From: a virus | Taxonomy: Duplodnaviria; Heunggongvirae; Uroviricota; Caudoviricetes | Length of the DNA: 31,131 nt | Virus record (IMG/VR): IMGVR_UViG_3300045988_022899 | Span: 1-31,131 of that record | Reading direction: 5' to 3' (one strand) | In this document: positions 2,355 through 29,837 of the stretch, one piece after another | Layout of the letters: every line of letters starts with the position of its first letter | Numbering within the stretch: the stretch's first letter is position 1 | The notes under the pieces: model-generated | What the model was told of the DNA's origin: nothing | Database searches by the model: none | The model's input: only the letters and a program-made list of their open reading frames with translations | Made by a program: the position numbers and the translations under genes

Positions 2355-3041
2355 ATGACTGCTAACGTAACCCCATCTGTTTTTCATTTTGAATCAGAAG
2401 CAACCATTCGAGCCATTGTTATTGATGGAAATCCTTGGTTTGTTGCCAAAGACGTTATTAAAGCTCTTCAACTGACAAACCCCACTATGTCAATAAAATC
2501 TCTTGATGATGATGAAAGGGCTAAATTTAACTTAGGCCGTCAAGGCGAAACCAATATTATCAACGAGTCAGGCCTCTACACACTGATCCTCCGCTGCCGC
2601 GATGCGGTGACACCAGGCACTATCCCCTACCGCTTTCGTAAATGGGTTACAGGTGAGGTTCTTCCTCAGATCCGCCGCACCGGAAGTTACATTAAAAACT
2701 CGCTCCCGCAGGAAGAACGCATAAAGATGGTTGCCGACCAGGTAGCCAACGCCACGGCGTCAGCAGTGATGCAGGCGATGAAGATAGAGAACAAAACCTA
2801 CAGTGCCCCACTGAAGCCCGGCTACCGCAGTCTGATTCATTCTCCGTCTGGTGTTCTCGGCCTGACGGAGAACTCACTGCTGATGAATCTGCTGAACCAG
2901 TTACAGGAAGACGGGCACGACGTATCGGGCGCGGCGGCGGAGTTGACCACCATGTTCTGCTACATCGTCGGTGTGAGCAAATGCCTGCGTGATATCCAGA
3001 CGCACGCGGAGTACATCAACGACAAGGCAGGGTTCTTCTGA
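2355..3041 (+). CDS. ant: Phage antirepressor (Bro-N domain N-terminus plus C-terminal antirepressor domain)
   Basis: ATG at 2355 with AAGGTGA RBS; the track ORF has a 51-codon upstream extension. N-terminus FHFESEATIRAIVIDGNPWFVAKDVIKAL...ESGLYTLILRCR...VLPQIRRTG matches the Bro-N/antirepressor pattern from memory. Confidence 0.8.
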   Translation: MTANVTPSVFHFESEATIRAIVIDGNPWFVAKDVIKALQLTNPTMSIKSLDDDERAKFNLGRQGETNIINESGLYTLILRCRDAVTPGTIPYRFRKWVTGEVLPQIRRTGSYIKNSLPQEERIKMVADQVANATASAVMQAMKIENKTYSAPLKPGYRSLIHSPSGVLGLTENSLLMNLLNQLQEDGHDVSGAAAELTTMFCYIVGVSKCLRDIQTHAEYINDKAGFF

Positions 3042-3491: not shown

Positions 3492-3990
3492 GTATAGCGG
3501 GAAGGTTATACCTACTGGTGAGTTTAAAACTGATGACTTTCTGATTTCGCTAAAAGATGCTTTTAAACAACACTGGCGTCATGGTCATCATCCTGATCTG
3601 GGAAAAGATACTCTTTTTGAAAGACCAGACGAAGTATTAGGCTTCCATCTCAGAAAGGTTCATGTCAATATTGGTGAATATGCATCATATTCATACTCAT
3701 GTACTGAACAGTGTTGGGATGAGTGGTCATATGGATTGATTGATGAACAAGGAAATTACAGGCCAAAACCAACCAGTAACGCATATCTCATATATGCAGT
3801 CAATGAAATAAGAGATGCAGCCTTACTAGCTTATTGGGACCCGCCCGCACACACCAAAGCTAACGCAAAAGTTTGGATGGATTCCGTATTGAATTTCACA
3901 AAATTATTTCATGAACGAACGAATACAGCCCCACTTAGTAGAAATGTTTATCCGTGGGATTATTCGTACAAATCCAAAAAGCCTGCATAG
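3478..3990 (+). CDS. YafO-like toxin-domain protein (putative ribosome-dependent mRNA interferase)
   Basis: ATG at 3478 with GGAAGAGG RBS. Motifs HPDLGKDTLF, LRKVHVNI and AALLAYWDPPAH resemble the YafO-family FGRD / HIHL / LLLAIL.P.H pattern as recalled; not database-verified. The locus is AT-rich. Confidence 0.45.
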   Translation: MFLSEYSGKVIPTGEFKTDDFLISLKDAFKQHWRHGHHPDLGKDTLFERPDEVLGFHLRKVHVNIGEYASYSYSCTEQCWDEWSYGLIDEQGNYRPKPTSNAYLIYAVNEIRDAALLAYWDPPAHTKANAKVWMDSVLNFTKLFHERTNTAPLSRNVYPWDYSYKSKKPA

Positions 3991-4071
3991 TAGTTTTTTA
4001 TGGACGAAACAAAAGTCAGTGCTACACTCATTGACGCCACATTGAGGTGGCTTATAGATGGAAATTTCACA

Positions 4072-4233
4072 ATGAAAAAAGCATTTGCTGCACTGTTCGT
4101 TTTGTTGTCTCTGGTAGCTTCAACTCAGGCCTTTGCCGGTCGTTGTCAGCACGACAGCGATACTGCCGCTGACGGCTCCCGCTGCGGTGGGCGTTCTGCG
4201 GATTCCCGCCCGGGTGGCGGTGGCATTCGTTAA
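4072..4233 (+). CDS. Small secreted peptide (signal peptide MKKAFAALFVLLSLVASTQAFA, ~31-aa Gly/Cys-containing mature part)
   Basis: ATG at 4072 inside the longer track ORF; typical Sec signal with an AFA-G cleavage context; followed by a hairpin. Confidence 0.4.
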   Translation: MKKAFAALFVLLSLVASTQAFAGRCQHDSDTAADGSRCGGRSADSRPGGGGIR

Positions 4234-4757: not shown

Positions 4758-7232
4758 TTATTGCGGAGTGACATCCTGTGGTCGCCACCAGTATGTCTGG
4801 TTAAACTCTTTCTTCGAACGTTGCTCCATTTTACGTAAATAACCTGGTGAAAAATACTCCTGCATCTGGTTAAAGATCATGTGATCGAGAGCCGCCTTCA
4901 AGTACCAGAGATTCGCACCAGGCATCAAACCTTTCCCCAGCTTCACCAGATCACCACCAGTCTGCTCACTCTTCCCTTCCACAGCATTTAACGGTATGCC
5001 CTGAGCAATCTTCACTACATCATCAACCAGACCAGCTACCGGGCCAAGCATCGACGCCAGCGCGCCGCTCCCGTACCTAGTGTGGTCAGAGAAAAGAAAA
5101 TCACCGTACAACCCAGCCCCGCCACCTTTTAAAAATGCATTTATCCAGAATTTAACCATGTGGTCACCGGTCATTTCCTTTGGATTTCTCCCATTAATAA
5201 GATCAGTAATCTGCATGGAAAGAGCACCAAGCATGGTTGTGCTTGCTAAAAACGTTGCTATATATGCTGCACGCCCACCAGCAGACGGCATACCCATAGC
5301 GCGTGACCAGTGACGCATAACAACCGAGATAGGGAACGATTTAAACAGGAAAACACTTCTCGTTAATTCACCTTTCCATGTTCCACGCTGAAGACCAGAC
5401 CCTACGAACATCTGCTCACGTGCGCCCGGTGTAATAACAGCCATATCAACTTCTTCAGTTACGGCACCGAGCAGTTTACGCATTGCCTCAAATTTCACGC
5501 GTTCAGGCTCACCAAGATGTTTAACTGCTGAATCAGGGATACGCATAATGCTTTCCGGTGTCAGCATCGTATTATTACCGTTCCCCCAGTCCTCCTGTTG
5601 CGCCAGCTTCCATACGCTCCAGTCTGTGTCAGTAATCCCTTTACTTTTCAGGATACGAAAATCAGAGTCATCGAGGCTACGAAGGTCTGGTGTCCGTGAC
5701 ACTACTTCTCCCAGGCTTCCCATCATGGTTACGCCATAGGCGCGCTTGTGCGCATCTGACCATGCTGTAAGCCCACTGGCACGCATTACCGCCGTTGCCG
5801 CCCAACGAGACACAGACGGCCCCATATTATCCATCGCCCAGCGGTTAACGCTGCCAAGTAGAGATTCCATCGCCAGGCCAGCGCGGCGCGCCCGCGCAAG
5901 CTCAGTACGGTTCGTTGGGTCCATAGCTTCAAGCTGGTTGCGAAATAACTGGTTCATTGGAAGGTTGGTAACCTTCGCAGACAGATACATGGTTCCAAGA
6001 TCAGAGAACGATGACAGCAACGCGGATCCGAGTCTGCTGGCAACCAGCCAGTTGCGGATATTGTCAGACCATCGCGCGATGTGGGGATTCGCTACAGGCT
6101 GTGTTTTTCCGGAAATAAAGTTGTACAAGTTCTCTGTTTTGTTCGCCAGACGCTCGACGCTACCGGTTTTACTCGGGTTAGCTGTTGCCGTTTCTGCCTT
6201 AACCTGATCAAGAAGGGAGCGGAAAACATGATCGGGGTTTGGACCATATGTTTCCACCAGAGCAATATCTTTACTGATACCTTCCAGGTGACCGACCATG
6301 ATTTCCCATAGAGAGCGATCGCCATAAAGTTGCTGATATTGCAGATAGGAATCTGCATCTTTGAAATGTATCTGTCGTGATGCATTACCACGGTTAGCAC
6401 GTGCGCCGGAAATTCGCATTCCGGTATCAGTAAGCTTATTCAGCCCACCAGTAGCGATCGTGTTATAAGCCTCTCCAAGAAATGCAGACAACTCGGCATC
6501 GTTCATCAGTTGTCCATCGGCTCGGGTATAATATTTGCGATCCAGCTTACCTATAACATCGCTAACCCACTTATCCTTTGATACCGCCCCAACCTTTTCC
6601 ATAGAATGATGTTGAGGGATCCCCCAGTTTTCGAGATAGCCAATGTCCCCACCAGCATCATTAAACCGGCGGCGCAGCAGCTCTGTAACTTCTCTCCACG
6701 CCTTAGCACCTTTTCTTGCTTTAGCATTGCCAGTATTTTGCCCCCGCATTTCATATACCAGGTCACGTACGCCCGCTTCATCTTCAAACAGACCAAAAAA
6801 GCGAGGATCAACTGCTTCGAATGCCTCCTGCAATTGACTCAATGCATAATCACGAGTGGCTTTTGTTCTGGACTCAACAGAGAGGAAATTCGATTTACCG
6901 TCTGCATTAAAAGCAATAGTACGGTTAAGAGCGCCAAGTTTCCCATCAGACCCTTGATAGCTATTGATAAATTTATCCAATCTCTGACGCGCGGCTATAG
7001 TGAGAGCCACACGACGTTTCTTTAATGCCGCTTCTCGCTGTAATTCTTCAGATGCCAATTGTGCTGCTCGATATAGCCGCTCTGATTCGGAAAGTTGTCG
7101 CCACGACATCGGGTCATCACGAGCAATGGAGCGCATATTTCGATAAATGCGGTCTTCAATGTTCTGTATTTCTCGCGCCGTTAAAGTGCGCTGCGCCGCC
7201 TGCTGGACCGCTTGTATACATTCCTGTCTCAT
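4758..7232 (-). CDS. Large internal virion (ejection/core) protein, 824 aa
   Basis: Last large gene of the coupled virion operon downstream of the gp14-like gene; called by position and size. Confidence 0.5.
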   Translation of the reverse strand: MRQECIQAVQQAAQRTLTAREIQNIEDRIYRNMRSIARDDPMSWRQLSESERLYRAAQLASEELQREAALKKRRVALTIAARQRLDKFINSYQGSDGKLGALNRTIAFNADGKSNFLSVESRTKATRDYALSQLQEAFEAVDPRFFGLFEDEAGVRDLVYEMRGQNTGNAKARKGAKAWREVTELLRRRFNDAGGDIGYLENWGIPQHHSMEKVGAVSKDKWVSDVIGKLDRKYYTRADGQLMNDAELSAFLGEAYNTIATGGLNKLTDTGMRISGARANRGNASRQIHFKDADSYLQYQQLYGDRSLWEIMVGHLEGISKDIALVETYGPNPDHVFRSLLDQVKAETATANPSKTGSVERLANKTENLYNFISGKTQPVANPHIARWSDNIRNWLVASRLGSALLSSFSDLGTMYLSAKVTNLPMNQLFRNQLEAMDPTNRTELARARRAGLAMESLLGSVNRWAMDNMGPSVSRWAATAVMRASGLTAWSDAHKRAYGVTMMGSLGEVVSRTPDLRSLDDSDFRILKSKGITDTDWSVWKLAQQEDWGNGNNTMLTPESIMRIPDSAVKHLGEPERVKFEAMRKLLGAVTEEVDMAVITPGAREQMFVGSGLQRGTWKGELTRSVFLFKSFPISVVMRHWSRAMGMPSAGGRAAYIATFLASTTMLGALSMQITDLINGRNPKEMTGDHMVKFWINAFLKGGGAGLYGDFLFSDHTRYGSGALASMLGPVAGLVDDVVKIAQGIPLNAVEGKSEQTGGDLVKLGKGLMPGANLWYLKAALDHMIFNQMQEYFSPGYLRKMEQRSKKEFNQTYWWRPQDVTPQ

Positions 7233-7237
7233 TTAAT

Positions 7238-9040
7238 TTAACCTCTCAAGAAACACGCCACAGCGACATCAAACAGGCTGGAATCCTGTATTGCCTGCTC
7301 ACTTTCCCTGTTCGCTTCATCCAGTACTTCACGCGCACTGCGCGATTGTGGATTACCATCATCATCCAGCACGGTGATTATCATGTCAGGTGATTCAAGC
7401 AGCGAGTCTTCAGCTATGCGCAGATCAATATCTCCTGCCTTATCTGACATCATTTTTTGTTCTGCCTGTTGCAATATTTTATCAGGCTCAAAAGGAGCTG
7501 CTTCGTCTGGCGTCCTGACCTCTGCTGTTTTATAGAATGAAACAGCCTGAGCATTAAGTTCACTTTCTGCCTGCTGTCTCCGAGCCAGTTCTGCTCGAGC
7601 TTCAAAAAGCTGACCGCCAGGCTCGTGCGGTGCCAACGCGTTACGGGAAAATTCCAGGCGTTCTTGTGCCTGCCGGATTCGTTGATCAATATCGCGAAGT
7701 CTGGCCTGTTTATCTGATCGAGCACGAGACAAAGCTTTACCGCTACCGGTTGGCTCTTCTGCAAGAATTTGTGCACGCTGTTCAGTGAGATTTTCAATAA
7801 TTCGTTGGCTATTAGCGATTTCAGACTGGTAAACCTGTCTATCTCCACGCGGCAAAAGCTGCGCGGCCTGTTCTTCAAGCAACCGATTTTCTATAGCGCG
7901 CGCCGTTACTCCATCATCTACAGATGACAGAGCCTCATTAACTGCCTGAGACAGCAGACTCTTGCGCCCAGGAATTTCACTGAAAGATGCAGACTCAACA
8001 ATGCTGGCAACGTCTACAGGTCTCCCCTGGCTAACATCAGACATAGCTTTTCGCAGAGCCTGAATGTGAGAATTGCGCGAAAGCACGTTGATCGGCACGC
8101 CGGGCGCAATATCAATTTCAGCATGATGAGCGGCATTCGCCGCCAGTGCAGCATCGATATCAACTGGTGAAAAATTTGGTGCGTTTGTAGACTCGCCGCG
8201 AGAGTTAATAAATCTGCCGACACCACCAAACGCCACCCCAAGAACAGCATCAATAGCAATTGCCTGTCGATCCAACACATCATACTGGTTAGCCATTTCG
8301 CTATAGCCACCATCACGAAGCGTTTTTGCAGTAAGCCCACGCTGTGCCATACCGAACGCAATATTTGTACCTGCGGCATAGGCAATATCTGGCGTTGCAC
8401 GTACTGCTGTTGCTGCGGCGCGTCGCACTGAACTTTCACCCGTCCGCGCAAGCTGAGCCGCCACACCTTCCGCCAGCGCACCACCAGCACGTAACCCGAG
8501 GCTCATAGGGATCAGTGTTCCGGCACCAGCAGTAATACCCTGCACTAATCCCGCTTCCTGCGCCGCCCTGAAATCAACCCCCTGTGCTGTCAGCCGTTCA
8601 AACTCAGAAAAACCCTGTAGCGAAGTTACCGCCGCTGCACCTCCGACCGGACCACCGAGCGTTGTACCGACAACAGCCTGCCCGCCCATATCGAACAACC
8701 CATAAAGAACCTGCCCGGCGGTTCCGGTTGTCGCGGCATCAGGCGTCAGCCGCTTAACCTGCTGCTCTGCTAGTTTTCTCTGCTCGGCAATGTATGAAAC
8801 TGAAGTGTCATTGAGCGAGGTGTTTTCGTTAACAAACTGAGCAATCGGGGATACGATTTTATCCATCCCTGCCCAGAGCAACTGATCTGGCTTTGCCACC
8901 AGCCCGGAGTACAAACCAGACAATGCCGCTCCTACAGCATTGTCGAAAAAACCAACATCGCTGTTAAAGCCAGCTGGATTTGATGCTGCTTCGTCAAGCT
9001 GCTGATTCTGGTTTACTGGATTAAGGCCAAAGTAACTCAT
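7238..9040 (-). CDS. Internal virion protein, 600 aa (Gly/Ala-rich N-terminal half, coiled-coil C-terminal half)
   Basis: Its start overlaps the upstream stop (ATGA-type coupling); position within the ejection-protein block. Confidence 0.5.
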   Translation of the reverse strand: MSYFGLNPVNQNQQLDEAASNPAGFNSDVGFFDNAVGAALSGLYSGLVAKPDQLLWAGMDKIVSPIAQFVNENTSLNDTSVSYIAEQRKLAEQQVKRLTPDAATTGTAGQVLYGLFDMGGQAVVGTTLGGPVGGAAAVTSLQGFSEFERLTAQGVDFRAAQEAGLVQGITAGAGTLIPMSLGLRAGGALAEGVAAQLARTGESSVRRAAATAVRATPDIAYAAGTNIAFGMAQRGLTAKTLRDGGYSEMANQYDVLDRQAIAIDAVLGVAFGGVGRFINSRGESTNAPNFSPVDIDAALAANAAHHAEIDIAPGVPINVLSRNSHIQALRKAMSDVSQGRPVDVASIVESASFSEIPGRKSLLSQAVNEALSSVDDGVTARAIENRLLEEQAAQLLPRGDRQVYQSEIANSQRIIENLTEQRAQILAEEPTGSGKALSRARSDKQARLRDIDQRIRQAQERLEFSRNALAPHEPGGQLFEARAELARRQQAESELNAQAVSFYKTAEVRTPDEAAPFEPDKILQQAEQKMMSDKAGDIDLRIAEDSLLESPDMIITVLDDDGNPQSRSAREVLDEANRESEQAIQDSSLFDVAVACFLRG

Positions 9041-18542: not shown

Positions 18543-18839
18543 TCACTCCTGTTCACTGGCCTCTTTGGCCATCTTCAAATACTGTTCAGGGCAATGCGCC
18601 ATAACGCGCTGAAACAGTTCCAGCGCCAGATTGCGTTGCCCCTCATTAAATGCCATTGCCATAGCGTCCATCGGTGAGATAGCGGAAAACACACGGCCTT
18701 TCTCCAGCACAGACCAGACAACGCGACGCCCCTGTTCACTGCTCATGACAAAGCAAATGTCATCAATTTCACGCTGTGCCATGTCACGTTGCTTACGGGC
18801 GTTTTCTTCTTTCAGTTGATCGTCTTCGTAATCTGTCAT
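18543..18839 (-). CDS. Small head-assembly-region protein, unknown function
   Basis: ATGA overlap with the portal stop and TGA..ATG coupling to the scaffold gene. Confidence 0.45.
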   Translation of the reverse strand: MTDYEDDQLKEENARKQRDMAQREIDDICFVMSSEQGRRVVWSVLEKGRVFSAISPMDAMAMAFNEGQRNLALELFQRVMAHCPEQYLKMAKEASEQE

Positions 18840-20515
18840 TGTGATTGCCCACCCTGACCACTAACTGCATTCGCCATAGCTGACAACACACTCGGATCCG
18901 AAGTTTTAGCTTCGCTTAGCGTCTTGGCCCCCTGTGCCGCCGCCATCCCCATCGCCATCATTTGTTGCTGCTGTTGTTGCTGTGCCCGTTGCTGGCGAGC
19001 CTGCTCAACCTGTTCCTGCGGAACAATGACGGTTGGAGACACTCCGGACATATCAGCGAATGCATCGATCGCCTGATCAACGTTGAGTTTGTCGAGAGCT
19101 TCTGGTTTCGCTTGCGCAAGTTGACCAATGAAGTTAACCGTGGACGCCAGACTGGACAGGCCGATAGACTTCTGCGCCTGAGCCATGACGGAAATGTATT
19201 CGACCTTCAGGGGCATACCTTCCATCGCGTCAGGCGGTGGCGGCAGCATGTTTTTACGCACCATCATCGAGAAAGCGCGGTCAATGAGAGGGTTAAGACA
19301 TTCGTCGTTCAGACGCTCCAGAACCGGCCCCAACATCAGAAGCTTTTCTTCTTTCATTTCGATCACTGCTTCAACAGGCATCGAGCGGGTATTGATGTTC
19401 TGCAACATCATGAACAGATCGACAAAGTAGGCGCTGTTAATGATTTGGCGGGTGTCCTGAATGTCTGCTACCAGATCTGCTGTACTGGGGTTAACCAGAT
19501 AAGCAGGCCTGAAACCATCCTGACCAGTAATCTGATCGATATACGTGATGTCGCCAGGAAGAAGGGAGGCGCGCTGATTCTTGAGGGAAGTCGGAGCAAC
19601 CATCGGCGGATTGGTGGCTTTATCAATCAACTGCGACTTGCGCTTCTGGAGAAGCTGCAATGCCTTAACAGGTCCAAGCGCCAGCATACCCGGGCATGAT
19701 GATCCATAAACATCTTCGCCATTAACTTCCCAGCGCGGAGCCATAATTGGAAACTCATCAAATCCGGACTCACGCAACAACTTGTCGTTATCGCCACCAA
19801 CCTCGTAATAAACCGATTTGAATGGCTTGTTCTTGCTATCCAGCTTCGATGTATCGCGGTCAATGTTCGGGTAAACCGAATGCATCACGTCAATCCACTT
19901 CTCGTAGGTGCCGCTTTCCCACATGCTTTTTACGGATTCGCTGACGTTATTTAGCCCGAACTCCTGAACAAGCTGACGAACAGTCATAGAGAACTTGCGA
20001 AAACAGGTGTCCACACTGCCACGAGGTGAGTTAGCCAGGTAGTAACTGCCTATCGGGAATGGCATTGTGCGAATGATGTCCTCGTCATCCTCCAGCACCG
20101 CCATTGCACCAGTGCTGTATGTGCCGAGGCTTCCGTATAACTGCGGAAGAGACTGGTAGAGATTCGACTTATTGAACATATCGTTCATGCGGTTCTGCAC
20201 CGCCTCGAGCCACAACTTAACAGGACCATAATCCATCATTTCAGGATCTGGCGTAGCCAGGCGAAACCACGGACGCGCAGGGCTTGTGATGCCTGACATC
20301 ATGCCGCTGGCGAGAGTGCGCGCCGCCATAGTCCCGGTAGAATCAATAATGCGTGTATTGCGTCGATCGTTACGGTTGACCTCAGAAGTCAGAAAGCGGG
20401 AACCACGCGGGTTGATGTAATCACTCAACTCGCGCCAGTGCGGCTCGAACGACTGACGCTCGCTTTCAAGTTGTGCGAACTGTTTGTTCAATCGCTCTTT
20501 AGTTGTTTCCGCCAT
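18836..20515 (-). CDS. Portal (head-to-tail connector) protein, T7 gp8-like
   Basis: 559 aa; Gln/Ala/Met-rich C-terminal tail (QQRAQQQQQQQMMAMGMAAAQGA) resembling the T7 gp8 C-terminus; GGAG RBS. Confidence 0.75.
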   Translation of the reverse strand: MAETTKERLNKQFAQLESERQSFEPHWRELSDYINPRGSRFLTSEVNRNDRRNTRIIDSTGTMAARTLASGMMSGITSPARPWFRLATPDPEMMDYGPVKLWLEAVQNRMNDMFNKSNLYQSLPQLYGSLGTYSTGAMAVLEDDEDIIRTMPFPIGSYYLANSPRGSVDTCFRKFSMTVRQLVQEFGLNNVSESVKSMWESGTYEKWIDVMHSVYPNIDRDTSKLDSKNKPFKSVYYEVGGDNDKLLRESGFDEFPIMAPRWEVNGEDVYGSSCPGMLALGPVKALQLLQKRKSQLIDKATNPPMVAPTSLKNQRASLLPGDITYIDQITGQDGFRPAYLVNPSTADLVADIQDTRQIINSAYFVDLFMMLQNINTRSMPVEAVIEMKEEKLLMLGPVLERLNDECLNPLIDRAFSMMVRKNMLPPPPDAMEGMPLKVEYISVMAQAQKSIGLSSLASTVNFIGQLAQAKPEALDKLNVDQAIDAFADMSGVSPTVIVPQEQVEQARQQRAQQQQQQQMMAMGMAAAQGAKTLSEAKTSDPSVLSAMANAVSGQGGQSQ

Positions 20516-20529
20516 TTCAATGACTCCGG

Positions 20530-20736
20530 TTACTGACCAAGCAGCGTTTTACCGCTGGTATTAGCGGTTGATGTGTCGCCCTGAGAACCGGTAAGCAGCG
20601 TAGAACTACGACCAGCAGCAGCGCGACGGCGACGTGTTTCTTCGTCGCGGGCATCAACAACGGCGGCATCCTGCTCCTGTGGTGCTGCCTGAACTTCTGG
20701 TGTTGCAGGCACTGATGGTGAGCTACCCATGCACAT
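20530..20736 (-). CDS. Small protein preceding the portal gene, unknown function
   Basis: ATG at 20736 with the same GGAGTCATTGA RBS context as the portal gene; preferred over the overlapping alternative frame 20517-20756. Confidence 0.45.
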   Translation of the reverse strand: MCMGSSPSVPATPEVQAAPQEQDAAVVDARDEETRRRRAAAGRSSTLLTGSQGDTSTANTSGKTLLGQ

Positions 20737-20826
20737 ATCAATGACTCCGTACGCAATTAAATTATTACCAATTTAACCACATATGATTTATTTATCGTAG
20801 AAGGTTGACATTTAACGCGTGAATTA

Positions 20827-20841
20827 TTACCTTTCAGGTAA
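20827..20841. promoter_or_regulatory. Operator palindrome TTACCTTTCAGGTAA with upstream TTGACA (20805-20810)
   Basis: Perfect 6-3-6 palindrome over the -10/+1 region of a putative rightward promoter for the plus-strand insert. Confidence 0.5.
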
Positions 20842-21163
20842 CCAAAGAGCTCATTCTGGTTACTAACCTGACTGGCTTGTCGTTAAATTAAACAGGTGGA
20901 GTGAGCTTTTATTTTGAGCAGTACGGCGTATGGCACATGCGCCGATAGCGGTCTGGATACGTTTAAGGGGCACCCTCCCTTGCTCGGGCAAACGAACCAG
21001 GTAGCCGGAATGTGCAAGTCGAGCGGTTTTATTCCGCGCACGGGGATTCACCATCCCGGCGATTCGGTGTGACGCCTCGGAAGAGACGAGGGTACAACGA
21101 TGAGAGCATTTATGGAGCCGCGACAAAGTGTGGCGCCTTAACAGGCTAAGTGCTCTCAGCGTT

Positions 21164-21240
21164 GTGGCATTAGCTCAGTTGGACAGAGCAACCGCCTTCT
21201 AAGCGGTTTGTCGCAGGTTCGAATCCTGCATGCCACGCCA
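21164..21240 (+). tRNA. tRNA-Arg (anticodon UCU)
   Basis: Hand-folded cloverleaf: 7-bp acceptor stem GTGGCAT/ATGCCAC, anticodon stem ACCGC/GCGGT with loop CTTCTAA, T-arm GCAGG-TTCGAAT-CCTGC, 3' GCCA; resembles E. coli argU. Confidence 0.85.
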
Positions 21241-21283
21241 GAATCACGCCTAAGGACCGTGATGCCAGAAGTTCCAGGTGCTT

Positions 21284-21325
21284 GGCGGTGATGGTTTCCC
21301 TTGAAGGACTATCACCGCCCTTTTT
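21284..21325 (+). terminator. Intrinsic terminator after the tRNA
   Basis: GGCGGTGAT...ATCACCGCC stem followed by CTTTTT. Confidence 0.6.
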
Positions 21326-21403
21326 ACAGCAGGACGCCATTGCGATGACTTCATGCTGTAAACCAGTACAGCCACGGAAGGCATAACTCATTGCTTCCAG
21401 TTC

Positions 21404-21427
21404 GCCCGGTTCGCCGGGCATTTTTTT
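21404..21427 (+). terminator. Intrinsic terminator/attenuator GCCCGG-TTCG-CCGGGC plus T7, ending 11 nt before the next ATG
   Basis: Seen in sequence; tetraloop hairpin and T-run directly upstream of the AAGGTGAG RBS of the 21439 gene. Confidence 0.6.
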
Positions 21428-21438
21428 AAGGTGAGATT

Positions 21439-21801
21439 ATGAACGACCAGCAAATCGAAAAAGAAATCGTTGAGAAAGGCAAAACAGCACCTCGTGTTAC
21501 CCCGGAACGCATTGAAGCTGTTATCTCAGGCGAGTTTTACTTTACCGGCGCGGATGGGTATCGCAGCTCACCGTTGTGGCTGAAGCAGGAAGAGCCTGAA
21601 CCGGCCCCGCAATCACTCGAACTGCTGACTTTCTGCGTACTGGTGCTGAAGAATGGCTTCACCGTCACCGGAGATAGTGCCTGTGCAAGTCCGGAAAATT
21701 TTGATGCAGAAATTGGTCGGAAGATTGCCCGGCAGAATGCTGTAAACAAAATCTGGATGCTCGAAGGTTACTTGCTGAAGCAGAAGCTAAGCGAGCAATA
21801 A
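21439..21801 (+). CDS. Small phage protein, possibly Gp49/Sf6 gp66-like family
   Basis: ATG at 21439 with AAGGTGAG RBS; 120 aa; family assignment from memory of similar ~100-aa phage proteins, unverified. Confidence 0.4.
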   Translation: MNDQQIEKEIVEKGKTAPRVTPERIEAVISGEFYFTGADGYRSSPLWLKQEEPEPAPQSLELLTFCVLVLKNGFTVTGDSACASPENFDAEIGRKIARQNAVNKIWMLEGYLLKQKLSEQ

Positions 21802-21805
21802 CACC

Positions 21806-21817
21806 GTGACATGTCAC
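21806..21817. repeat. 12-bp palindrome GTGACATGTCAC (copy 2 of 3)
   Basis: Seen in sequence, 5 bp after the stop at 21801 and just before a terminator hairpin. Confidence 0.6.
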
Positions 21818-21821
21818 AAAC

Positions 21822-21848
21822 AGCCAGCCGATGAGCTGGCTTTGTTTT
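21822..21848 (+). terminator. Intrinsic terminator AGCCAGC-CGATG-GCTGGCT plus TTGTTTT
   Basis: Seen in sequence. Confidence 0.6.
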
Positions 21849-21891
21849 ATCCTCACCAGAGGATATCAACGACATTATCCCCACCAGCGGA

Positions 21892-23367
21892 TTAAGCATA
21901 GGGATCGTAATCTGTGATGGCCTTGCCTTTCTGGTTCTGCTGCCCGGGAATTCGCAGACGCTTCGACACAGGGAAAGCAAACGTCAGCAGTAGCGCATCG
22001 CCTTTACCCGGCGAACGCCCAAGCCGCTCCTTGATATCTTCCTTCGGTTCGATAACGATTTTACCGTCCACGCGAACTTTGTACTCTGCCGCCGACAGGT
22101 CGTCCGCTGTTTCCTGGTCATCCAGCATGCCGCCCAGCCTCAGCCATGTCTTGCATGAGTTGAACATCTCCCCACGCTTGTTAAGCATCTGCGGGTCAGT
22201 AGACGCGCCACCGAACGGAACAAGTTGCCATGTACGCCCCCAACCGTCACCGATTGACTTCAGACCGGTACCGTAACCGAAGTCGATGAACACCGCGTCA
22301 GCCTGGTACTGGTCTTCAAAGTCAGCGATACGCTTCGCCATAATCAGATCGTCGGTGGTCTTGTTACCAGTCCATAGCACCTTACTGTGCAGCCCCTGCC
22401 GCAGGTATATCACCGCGTCATCAACGCCTGAATATGCCGGGTCAACACCGATTATCACCGGAGCATGCGCCACCTGCGCAGCGGTTACCACCCGTTTCAT
22501 TGCCTCATCAGTAAGACCGGTAGGGATAAACTGCAATTCAGATGCATCAGGGAATATGCCGCGCACACGGATTTTAACGAAGTCGCTGTCTTCCCCGTAG
22601 TCATCAACCCATTTCTGCAACTGCTGTTTGTTAGTGCCTTCCACCGTCCGGCTGTCAATCTGCGCAGTTTTCCAGCGGTGTTTATATTTGCGGAAACATT
22701 CACGGAATCGCCCGGTATTACGCGTCGGGTTTCCGAACGCCACCCAGATAATCTCAGTGTCTTCGTCCGTTAGCGCACCTTCGGCAACTTCCCACACCAG
22801 ATCCGCAATGTTCGACGCTTCATCGAATACCACGATGATGCGTTTGCGCTCGTTGTGTAGTCCGGCGAATGCCTCAGTGTTGTGCTCAGACCAGGGGATT
22901 GCGTCAGCTCGCCACCGCTTGTCGTGCCCAGGATCATTGCTGTACATCGCGGTAGCGGTACAGGTAAACCAGTCTTTCGTGATAGCAAGGTTCGACCACT
23001 TGATAATTTCCGGCCAGGTCTTCGTTCGTAGCTGGTTGTCGGTGTTGGCGGTCACCACGACCTTACAATCCTCGCAAGTGGACATGCCCCAGTTGATCAG
23101 CATTGAGATGAATGCGGATTTACCAATACCGTGACCAGAAGCGCGTGCCAACATAAGCGGCTGATAGCGCGTCTCTGGATTCTGCAGGTGATCACGTATC
23201 TCTCGGAACGCATCAGCCTGCCACTGACGTGGGCCGGTAGCATGTGCCAGTTCAGTCCCCTCTTCCCCCCACGGGAACGCATAGAGGGCATAGCCAAGCG
23301 GATCGTGAGTGAACCCTGCAATATCCTCGATTAACTGCTCTTCAGGAGATAACGCTGTATCTGTCAC
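21892..23367 (-). CDS. Terminase large subunit, 491 aa
   Basis: Size, position after the small subunit, and nucleotide-binding/nuclease-type motifs (ARASGHGIGKSAF..., VVFDEASNI, IIGVDPAY); 4-nt overlap with the upstream gene. Confidence 0.8.
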   Translation of the reverse strand: MTDTALSPEEQLIEDIAGFTHDPLGYALYAFPWGEEGTELAHATGPRQWQADAFREIRDHLQNPETRYQPLMLARASGHGIGKSAFISMLINWGMSTCEDCKVVVTANTDNQLRTKTWPEIIKWSNLAITKDWFTCTATAMYSNDPGHDKRWRADAIPWSEHNTEAFAGLHNERKRIIVVFDEASNIADLVWEVAEGALTDEDTEIIWVAFGNPTRNTGRFRECFRKYKHRWKTAQIDSRTVEGTNKQQLQKWVDDYGEDSDFVKIRVRGIFPDASELQFIPTGLTDEAMKRVVTAAQVAHAPVIIGVDPAYSGVDDAVIYLRQGLHSKVLWTGNKTTDDLIMAKRIADFEDQYQADAVFIDFGYGTGLKSIGDGWGRTWQLVPFGGASTDPQMLNKRGEMFNSCKTWLRLGGMLDDQETADDLSAAEYKVRVDGKIVIEPKEDIKERLGRSPGKGDALLLTFAFPVSKRLRIPGQQNQKGKAITDYDPYA

Positions 23368-27444: not shown

Positions 27445-27491
27445 TTAAAAACCACATAAGACACGAAATCAATAGATCTAAGAACATTTTG

Positions 27492-29357: not shown

Positions 29358-29507
29358 GGTAAGCCCTGTTATTAGTATTGGGATTACGGTCATTTTGTGC
29401 TGACACAAAAAAAAGATCAACCATATTTGGTTTTTTATTACCTTTGAGGTACGAATAGATATGAAAAGACCGCCGGGTGGCGGTCTACAGAGGGTTGTAG
29501 CTGGATA

Positions 29508-29774: not shown

Positions 29775-29837
29775 TCACCCATAAGGTAACAAAAATCAAG
29801 GATAGTTACCCATGAGGTGCATTTACCTGTTGGGTAA
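29775..29837. promoter_or_regulatory. Tripartite operator region with divergent promoters between the cro-like and repressor genes
   Basis: Three sites seen in sequence: TCACCCATAAGGTAA (29775-29789), TTACCCATGAGGTGC (29806-29820), TTACCTGTTGGGTAA (29823-29837). Confidence 0.6.

Follow-up and report, generated by a model that had tools for sequence, protein, structure and literature searches.

A conserved structured RNA upstream of tRNA-Arg in a phiV10-type phage, and its distribution among enterobacterial phages

What is encoded by a leader of about 325 nt that separates a promoter from a tRNA gene, between the portal and terminase genes of a phage? The locus lies in IMG/VR record IMGVR_UViG_3300045988_022899, all 31,131 nt of which form the window analysed here, an epsilon15/phiV10-type (Uetakevirus) phage or prophage. 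A plus-strand unit sits there, flanked by the portal operon and the terminase genes, both on the minus strand, as an earlier note on this DNA had described. Over 20700-21900 the window shares its gene order and 97% of its nucleotides with Escherichia phage phiV10. That note suggested that the leader could be an RNA product or a processed tRNA precursor. This holds: the leader contains a conserved RNA supported by covariation. What the earlier reading overlooked is that the leader belongs to a widespread RNA family, which is also found without a tRNA in lambdoid prophages. The tRNA, the terminators and the small gene of the gp49/gp66 family that complete the unit are ordinary, and in some relatives they already carry annotations.

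A structured RNA core in the leader

The conserved core occupies positions 20923-21092 of the plus strand and consists of four helices and a pseudoknot, as judged from covariation, a conservation profile and a covariance model score of 156 bits. Helix P1 (20924-20944, loop GGCAC) is followed by P2 (20948-21005), which has a variable tip, by an invariant linker GGUAGCCGGAAUGUGCAAG (21000-21018), which as DNA is the 19-mer GGTAGCCGGAATGTGCAAG, by a variable P3 (about 21022-21039), by P4 (21043-21057, loop UUCACCA) and by P5 (21075-21091, loop GAAGAGA). The P4 loop pairs through CACC (21049-21052) with GGUG (21066-21069) to form the pseudoknot.

The structure, derived by hand, was tested on an alignment of 32 representatives sharing less than 85% identity. 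Paired cells amount to 97%, and 13 of the 32 pairs show compensatory changes. When the partners were slid along the alignment, only 24 to 45% of cells were paired, and none of 500 shuffles reached the observed covariation score. A covariance model built from this alignment (R1) allowed us to align 91 matches, representing 82 distinct sequences, among which 95.1% of cells are paired and compensatory changes are seen in 13 of 24 pairs. The pseudoknot covaries as well: AACC/GGUU replaces CACC/GGUG in three sequences. The helices are thus kept by compensatory substitutions, above the level of the controls, and the abundance of G-U pairs indicates that the plus strand is the functional one. In 110 unique 780-nt regions around the 19-mer, positions 20923-21092 are better conserved than the tRNA, and far above the flanks.

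Some pairings are less clear. The GCAC of the P1 loop can always pair with GUGC at 21012-21015, possibly as a second pseudoknot, but both segments are invariant. RNAalifold proposed a long-range pairing in place of P1; we rejected it, as no compensatory change is found there, in contrast to P1. A helix P0 closing the core was dropped because it was inconsistent across the inspected sequences. Upstream of the core, minimum free energy folding and alignment delineate a variable 5' hairpin (20845-20910, plus strand), which is deleted in the Salmonella relative SPC32H and is therefore dispensable.

Could this conservation reflect something other than an RNA? The candidates are a mere leader of the tRNA, a small protein gene on the opposite strand, and a DNA site for packaging or replication. 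On the antisense strand, 72 of 130 loci have an uninterrupted ORF (open reading frame) of 60 aa or more, and GenBank lists hypothetical proteins there, such as gp37 of mEp460 and gp36 of mEp390. However, leader substitutions at codon positions 1, 2 and 3 number 60, 63 and 51, with no enrichment at the third, and in 124 of 140 indel runs the length is not divisible by three, which breaks the frame. By these measures, the antisense ORFs annotated by GenBank over the RNA show no coding signature, and the earlier view that the leader contains no convincing ORF is borne out. A DNA site would suit the position between terminase and portal in the window, but in P1 and the lambdoid phages the element lies away from the packaging genes, and compensatory changes together with strand-specific G-U pairs point to RNA. 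Conservation far above that of the flanks argues against a mere leader. All these possibilities taken together seem to us very improbable.

Four GenBank hypothetical proteins overlie the tRNA, the terminators or the RNA: PhiV10p04 (window 21170-21421, minus strand), mEp460 gp37 (locus L125, 2943-3311, minus strand), mEp390 gp36 (L131, 2511-2753, plus strand) and Tyrion gp54 (L128, 2601-2762, plus strand). They are probably annotation artefacts, so that several "hypothetical protein" entries over the element would need correction.

Distribution and genomic settings

Members of the family were recovered by anchoring on the exact 19-mer, which is present in at least 120 IMG/VR contigs. Among 110 unique flanking regions, 26 have a tRNA-Arg downstream of the RNA, 15 have a tRNA with a CAU anticodon upstream (called tRNA-Met by ARAGORN, and annotated as trnI in P1), and 69 have no tRNA. 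By BLAST, the RNA is found in 83 phage records, including P1, P7 and Stx2 (Shiga toxin 2) phages, and in 1840 of 5426 complete E. coli genomes, that is, in roughly one third of them; 554 of these places are on plasmids. Among the E. coli matches listed, the only annotation underneath is the adjacent tRNA-Arg, where the query reaches the tRNA. In a set of 185k species genomes (one per species), the 19-mer occurs in 24 contigs, which belong to Enterobacterales except for two contigs of metagenome-assembled genomes (MAGs). The latter, L141 and L153, are labelled Oscillospiraceae and Bacillota, and the flanks of L141 are unlike the cassette. Mis-binning or chance, rather than true hosts, probably accounts for the exact 19-mer in both.

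Three settings were recognised. The first is that of the window, in Uetakeviruses (41 of 130 loci). The second is found in P1, P7 and P1-like plasmids, where the RNA lies in the C1-controlled ban operon (promoter Pban), between trnI (tRNA-Ile, CAU) and ban; in P1 the tRNA is therefore on the 5' side of the RNA, and neither the long stem P6 that follows the core in the window nor a cloverleaf is present. In the third, which comprises lambdoid and other siphoviral prophages (mEp460, mEp390, the cdtI phage, and Stx2a, Stx2c and Stx2k phages), the RNA is directly downstream of a cI-type repressor gene, on the same strand. This repressor is of the S24 type in 63 of the 130 loci, and a short helix-turn-helix (HTH) protein in about 7. 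The order in mEp460 is cI, the cI terminator, two TTGC-N7-GCAA operators of the same type as those of the right operator (OR), and then the RNA, which is thus the head of an operon of the PL (early left promoter) type. Given these layouts, an early promoter under repressor control precedes the RNA in each of the three settings.

What borders the RNA is a real tRNA, a decayed tRNA-like cloverleaf or a terminator, the last directly after P5 in a few loci. We found no phage protein shared between phiV10, mEp460 and about half of P1, apart from spurious ORFs over the RNA itself, and therefore conclude that the RNA travels alone.

An RNA lying always 5' of genes of the same strand, with invariant junction nucleotides and a pseudoknot, brings to mind a riboswitch-like sensor, whose core would bind a small molecule or an ion and tune downstream transcription or translation. 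However, no expression platform is conserved: P6 and a tRNA, a terminator or an ORF follow at variable distance. Moreover, the downstream genes are mutually unrelated, and known riboswitch classes were rejected, since Rfam gave no match to any of them on the window or on the mEp460 copy. The absence of a common expression platform, the unrelated downstream genes and the lack of a coding signature make the riboswitch, DNA-site and protein readings unlikely, and we leave the sensor a slight chance only.

Two loci show additional features. One IMG/VR contig (L020) carries two copies of the RNA, at 3987-4175 and 4794-4980 (both minus strand), about 620 nt apart and separated by an AT-rich insert; in the downstream copy, which has degenerated, P5 is broken and the 19-mer altered, and a terminator of its own follows. 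In a lambdoid-type locus (L011, RNA at 2538-2726, minus strand), Rfam gives strong matches, of 68 bits to the C4 antisense RNA and of 60 bits to isrK. Both lie about 2.2 kb upstream of the RNA, on the strand opposite to the stored one.

A transcription unit for a discrete RNA

How might such an RNA be produced in the window? Immediately after the core lies P6, a long stem formed by CAACGAUGAGAGCA and UGCUCUCAGCGUUG with a variable tip (21095-21164, plus strand), which ends at the first nucleotide of the tRNA. Among 19 diverse sequences, 8 of its 18 predicted pairs show compensatory changes. The tRNA-Arg(UCU), with an encoded CCA (21164-21240, plus strand), had been proposed in the earlier note; it is called by ARAGORN, is annotated in relatives, and matches the Rfam tRNA family (RF00005) with 71.8 bits (E 4e-15), well over the gathering score of 29. 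AGA codons are used at 6.6 per 1000 codons in the 28 ORFs of the window, or 11% of Arg codons, and are absent from its capsid, portal and terminase genes. Use of AGA in E. coli is roughly three times lower, and the tRNA plausibly supplements AGA decoding.

The junction between P6 and the tRNA is conserved beyond the loci that have a tRNA: P6 ends with CGUU, followed by GUGG (GUUGUGG), in 119 of 153 loci, and a tRNA or a decayed cloverleaf comes next. Three variants were seen: a real tRNA (Arg-UCU in 22 unique sequences); a cloverleaf in which the anticodon arm is replaced by variable insertions of 30 to 170 nt; and intermediate forms, in which a canonical GGUUCGAnUCC T arm or an anticodon-like arm persists. 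The decayed cloverleaf has a D-like arm (GCGC-AGGCUGAU-GCGC) and a T-like arm (GCCGG-AGAUCAGCA-CCGGC); it retains an acceptor stem of 7 bp (UGUGGUG/CACCACA), the U at position -1 and frequently ACCA as well. The window tRNA likewise has the 7-bp acceptor stem stacked on the T arm, the 3' RCCA and the U at -1. Both the tRNA and the decayed cloverleaves would thus be predicted tRNA-type substrates of RNase P. The earlier note had envisaged that the leader might be a tRNA-flanking relic; it is not, since the relics in relatives lie 3' of the RNA, at the position of the tRNA-Arg.

Beyond the tRNA or tRNA-like domain, a trailer hairpin H7, AUCACG-CCUAAGGAC-CGUGAU (21243-21263, plus strand), is conserved in many unrelated loci. 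Then comes the intrinsic terminator T1, GGCGGUG...CACCGCC (21284-21319, followed by CTTTTT up to 21325, plus strand), found by a terminator scan; across the family its stem base and U-tract are conserved and its interior covaries. Alignments reveal one more hairpin, H8, ACAGCA...UGCUGU, with a conserved loop GCCAUUGCGAUGAC (21326-21359, plus strand). As core, P6, tRNA or tRNA-like domain, hairpin, T1 and further hairpin are all conserved, we consider about 20920-21360 to be one conserved cassette, of which the window holds the version with a functional tRNA. In lambdoid versions, a single-stranded GCUGUGUGUAGUC just before T1 is also conserved. This segment or the H8 loop GCCAUUGCGAUGAC could be the seed of a small RNA (sRNA) of the 3'-trailer type.

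The same layout is found in ST64B (locus L132), in a gap of 815 nt that is left unannotated after the repressor gene (7239-8053, minus strand): cI terminator, left operator (OL), P6-like stem, tRNA-like domain, GCUGUGUGAAGUC, T1 and hairpin. The RNA at its 5' end has a different sequence, with no match to model R1. Conservation of about its first 65 nt extends to SfV, SfII, phiNP, Yersinia YeP2, Pectobacterium ZF40 and others, and this RNA may represent a second, separate family of leader RNAs. The tRNA-like domain of ST64B (L132 7465-7583, minus strand) resembles the STnc100 family (RF02076) with 35.1 bits (E 8e-6), below the gathering score of 47. No STnc100 match was given by Rfam in the window (20000-22500) or in six loci of the family. 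The ST64B match suggests that prophage sRNAs of the STnc100/PasD type descend from phage tRNA genes. The tRNA relics linked to the RNA would then illustrate how phage tRNA genes decay, either into tRNA-like processing signals or into STnc100-type sRNAs.

On the 5' side, the leader is preceded by a divergent control region (20757-20804), which separates the 68-aa gene (20530-20736) and portal (18836-20515) operon, on the minus strand, from the plus-strand RNA unit. It is invariant in E. coli, Klebsiella and Salmonella Uetakeviruses, and holds a ATTATTACC half-site (20761-20769) and a AACCACATATG motif, which reappears near other operator sites. A putative sigma-70 promoter follows (TTGACA-17 nt-TACCTT, 20805-20833, plus strand, with TTGACA at 20805-20810), and a palindrome TTACCTTTCAGGTAA (20827-20841) overlaps its -10/+1 region; both the box and the palindrome were correctly placed in the earlier note. 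The two hexamers are invariant, and the spacer variable, in four genera-level relatives (E. coli, Klebsiella, Salmonella). A simple consensus scan did not call the promoter at 20805-20833, because its -10 hexamer is weak (3 of 6 positions match).

The palindrome is not isolated. TTACC-N5-GGTAA occurs 14 times in the window (at 861, 1981, 2074, 3108, 20827, 23960, 23978, 27430, 27492, 29438, 29775, 29823, 30535 and 30597), where 0.49 are expected, and three palindrome sites lie at 29775-29837, between divergent immunity genes and beside a repressor homologue with two HTH domains. With so many operator-type sites and this cluster in the immunity region, a predicted operator-controlled promoter in front of the leader is well supported, and transcription would start there. 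The dispersed layout is reminiscent of the C1 control of P1. Such sites precede most transcription units, and two are next to the small terminase gene, shortly before or inside its 5' end. The second motif, AACCACATATG or AACCATATTTGGTT, lies within a few bases of TTACC/GGTAA half-sites at 20773-20783, about 849-859 and 27445-27455, and has a palindromic variant at 29418-29431. A second regulator may bind it, or it may serve as a promoter element of the minus-strand portal operon.

Downstream of the cassette, the terminator scan detects a strong T2 (GCCCGGUUCGCCGGGC followed by AUUUUUUU; 21404-21427, with the hairpin at 21404-21419 and the tail ATTTTTTT, plus strand), which is conserved, with a compensatory variant in SPC32H. 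Its end is about 10 nt ahead of the ribosome-binding site AAGGTGAG of a 120-aa gene (21439-21801, plus strand), which confirms that this gene is promoterless and lies behind terminators. Its product belongs to the Phage_gp49_66 family (N4 Gp49/Sf6 gp66; PF13876, 118.7 bits against a cut-off of 27, E 1.6e-34, at 21439-21798), and the same slot is filled by different genes in Klebsiella, Salmonella and Enterobacter relatives. The two terminators of the earlier note are both present; their number is however three among plus-strand hairpins, as T3 (21822-21841, followed by TTGTTTT up to 21848), annotated in phiV10, closes the unit before the convergent gene of the large terminase (21892-23367, minus strand). 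All three are predicted intrinsic terminators by hairpin and U-tract; three hairpins compare with 1.8 expected in the scan, a count that is weak by itself. In an alignment of the intergenic region of four relatives with about 75% identity (E. coli, Klebsiella and Salmonella Uetakeviruses), invariant blocks alternate with variable hairpins.

These features can be arranged into a scenario. Upon derepression, the operator-overlapped promoter would fire and give a single transcript, made of a structured RNA of about 240 nt, the tRNA-Arg(UCU) and a short structured trailer. RNase P would cut at the 5' end of the tRNA, right after ...CAGCGUU, leaving the structured RNA with a defined 3' end, while the tRNA would mature normally and serve in AGA decoding. 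T1 would end most transcripts, T2 and T3 acting as back-ups that insulate the convergent, essential terminase genes, and the promoterless 120-aa cargo gene would be expressed by leak-through only. The structured RNA would be the conserved payload, moving among unrelated temperate enterobacterial phages with no protein partner, and would most likely work as a separate folded molecule that targets a conserved component of the host during early lytic growth.

Several observations are in favour of this scenario. A defined end beside the RNA in most variants, and RNase P features that outlast the decay of the tRNA, argue for a discrete product. Three plus-strand terminators between a promoter with a perfect -35 and convergent terminase genes make a stable-RNA unit the simplest reading. 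Finally, some unpaired nucleotides are invariant, no phage partner is shared, and the members recovered with the exact 19-mer are enterobacterial, the two MAG contigs excepted; all this suggests binding to a conserved host component. Some points weigh against it. The activity of the promoter, cleavage by RNase P and a stable RNA are all predictions. In lambdoid phages the RNA is located exactly at the place of nutL/N or putL, with T1 before all early-left genes, and in P1 and a few other loci an ORF comes close after the core with no terminator, as for a cis-acting leader. The RNA, of which a search of open-access full text by sequence and topic found no description, may also go under another name. 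On balance, we see an even chance that RNase P, by cutting at the tRNA 5' end, frees a discrete, stable early RNA that acts on a host component. Within this interpretation, its biogenesis is better supported than any particular target.

The lambdoid setting leads to a different interpretation, in which the RNA is a processive antiterminator acting in cis, similar to put in function and not by ancestry. The nascent core would bind RNA polymerase, perhaps together with Nus factors, and allow it to pass T1 and T2 in the window, or T1 and later terminators in lambdoid early-left operons, so that downstream genes are expressed. The position of the lambdoid RNA at the head of a PL-type operon, after cI and OL and with T1 ahead of every early-left gene, fits this equally well. 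Furthermore, mEp460 and Stx2a_WGPS2 carry a Q-like protein and no annotated N; lambdoids of the ST64B/LLS type are devoid of N and perhaps use RNA-mediated antitermination (PMC12315714), and the mEp phages come from a collection of Nus-dependent phages (PMC11893012). In P6, a boxA-like UGCUCUY is retained on the 3' strand although it is inside a stem, and the 120-aa gene, promoterless, stands behind two terminators. However, a boxA/nut site was rejected, as a strict boxA is found in only 3 of 155 loci, where it is the tail of a terminator. In the phage BLAST, each phage has a single copy and the PR (early right promoter) operon lacks one, and R1 finds nothing in the PL and PR regions of HK022, hence the RNA is not put. 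The Uetakevirus unit meets the terminase genes head-on, and the third terminator that ends it would be useless against a terminator-resistant polymerase. The retained tRNA-like features of the RNase P type and the terminators directly after the core point rather to a discrete product, and ST64B has the same cassette with a swapped 5' RNA. We regard antitermination as clearly less likely than a discrete RNA, yet as a serious alternative. For the 120-aa gene, antitermination had been raised in the earlier note as one way of being expressed; it is possible but not favoured, given three plus-strand terminators in a unit that converges on essential genes, and is further weakened by relatives in which the RNA is directly followed by its own terminator.

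Returning to a discrete RNA acting in trans, we tentatively propose, at somewhat less than an even chance, that it is an autonomous, protein-independent "RNA moron" of P1-like, lambdoid and epsilon15-like phages, a new class of RNA that would be the first product after derepression and would bind a conserved enterobacterial machine for the benefit of lytic development. RNA polymerase, the ribosome, RNase P and a tRNA-directed defence nuclease are candidates for this machine.

Comparison with known RNA systems

A search with Rfam 15, as the earlier note had proposed for the leader, retrieved from 20000-22500 of the window (E<=1) nothing but the tRNA and a fortuitous hit on its opposite strand; the leader itself, 20840-21163, was empty. 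No match was obtained for the mEp460 copy (E<=10), and for the ST64B leader and six loci of the family permissive E-values returned only noise over the core. The RNA therefore appears to found a hitherto undescribed family of structured RNAs that phages carry next to tRNAs. If so, a folded RNA has been overlooked in well-studied phages, between trnI and ban in P1 and at the head of the early-left operon in Stx2 and other lambdoid prophages.

In its lambdoid setting, the RNA can be compared to the put RNA of HK022, which is about 70 nt long, forms two stem-loops, is present in two copies (PL and PR) and requires no phage protein (PMC9378689). Both are structured RNAs directly 3' of a repressor-controlled early-left promoter, in phages without N. 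In contrast to put, however, the present RNA has at least 170 nt, four helices and a pseudoknot, is single-copy and is also found in non-lambdoid settings. Model R1 had no match (E<=1) in HK022 25000-40578, which covers the PL and PR regions, and BLAST of the ST64B leader against HK022 did not reveal homology to put. The RNA would be a concrete candidate for how N-less lambdoid phages manage early-left transcription.

The CI RNA of P4 and the C4 RNA of P1 and P7 have 77 to 80 nt or so, are cut by RNase P from early or immunity transcripts, and base-pair to nearby targets. Like the RNA proposed here, they are small RNAs of temperate enterobacterial phages processed by RNase P. Unlike them, the present RNA has no conserved complementarity to downstream sequence. 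The only one found is of 8 nt, between CCCGGCGA of the core (21055-21062) and the 3' half of T2 (21411-21418); this P4-like pairing was discarded, as it is not conserved in Salmonella and Klebsiella relatives and is probably due to chance. Rfam matched neither C4 (RF01695) nor isrK in window 20000-22500. As to the prophage-encoded sRNAs STnc100 and PasD, the latter of which was found by ligating and sequencing interacting RNAs (RIL-seq) on Hfq (bioRxiv 10.64898/2026.05.13.724894), the likeness is limited to the ST64B domain downstream of its 5' RNA, at a score below gathering, and does not involve the core.

By analogy, the nearest known systems in context and style are ROOL and GOLLD. Sizes differ: ROOL has roughly 580 nt and GOLLD more than 800 nt, whereas the core described here has about 170 nt (about 240 nt with P6). 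ROOL (RF03087) and GOLLD (RF01998) gave no match in window 20000-22500 (E<=1) or in the mEp460 copy (E<=10), and the exact 19-mer is confined to Enterobacterales, the two MAG contigs excepted. Both are RNAs of phages and prophages, with no assigned function and often located beside tRNAs; in GOLLD, the linker sometimes includes tRNAs, and levels go up during lytic growth (PMC12286853). The present RNA, for its part, would be driven by an early lytic promoter. They share with the present RNA a phage-borne nature, an elaborate structure with pseudoknots, no known protein partner and the neighbourhood of tRNAs. If our interpretation is correct, the leader RNA would be a compact and tractable enterobacterial counterpart of the tRNA-adjacent ROOL and GOLLD.

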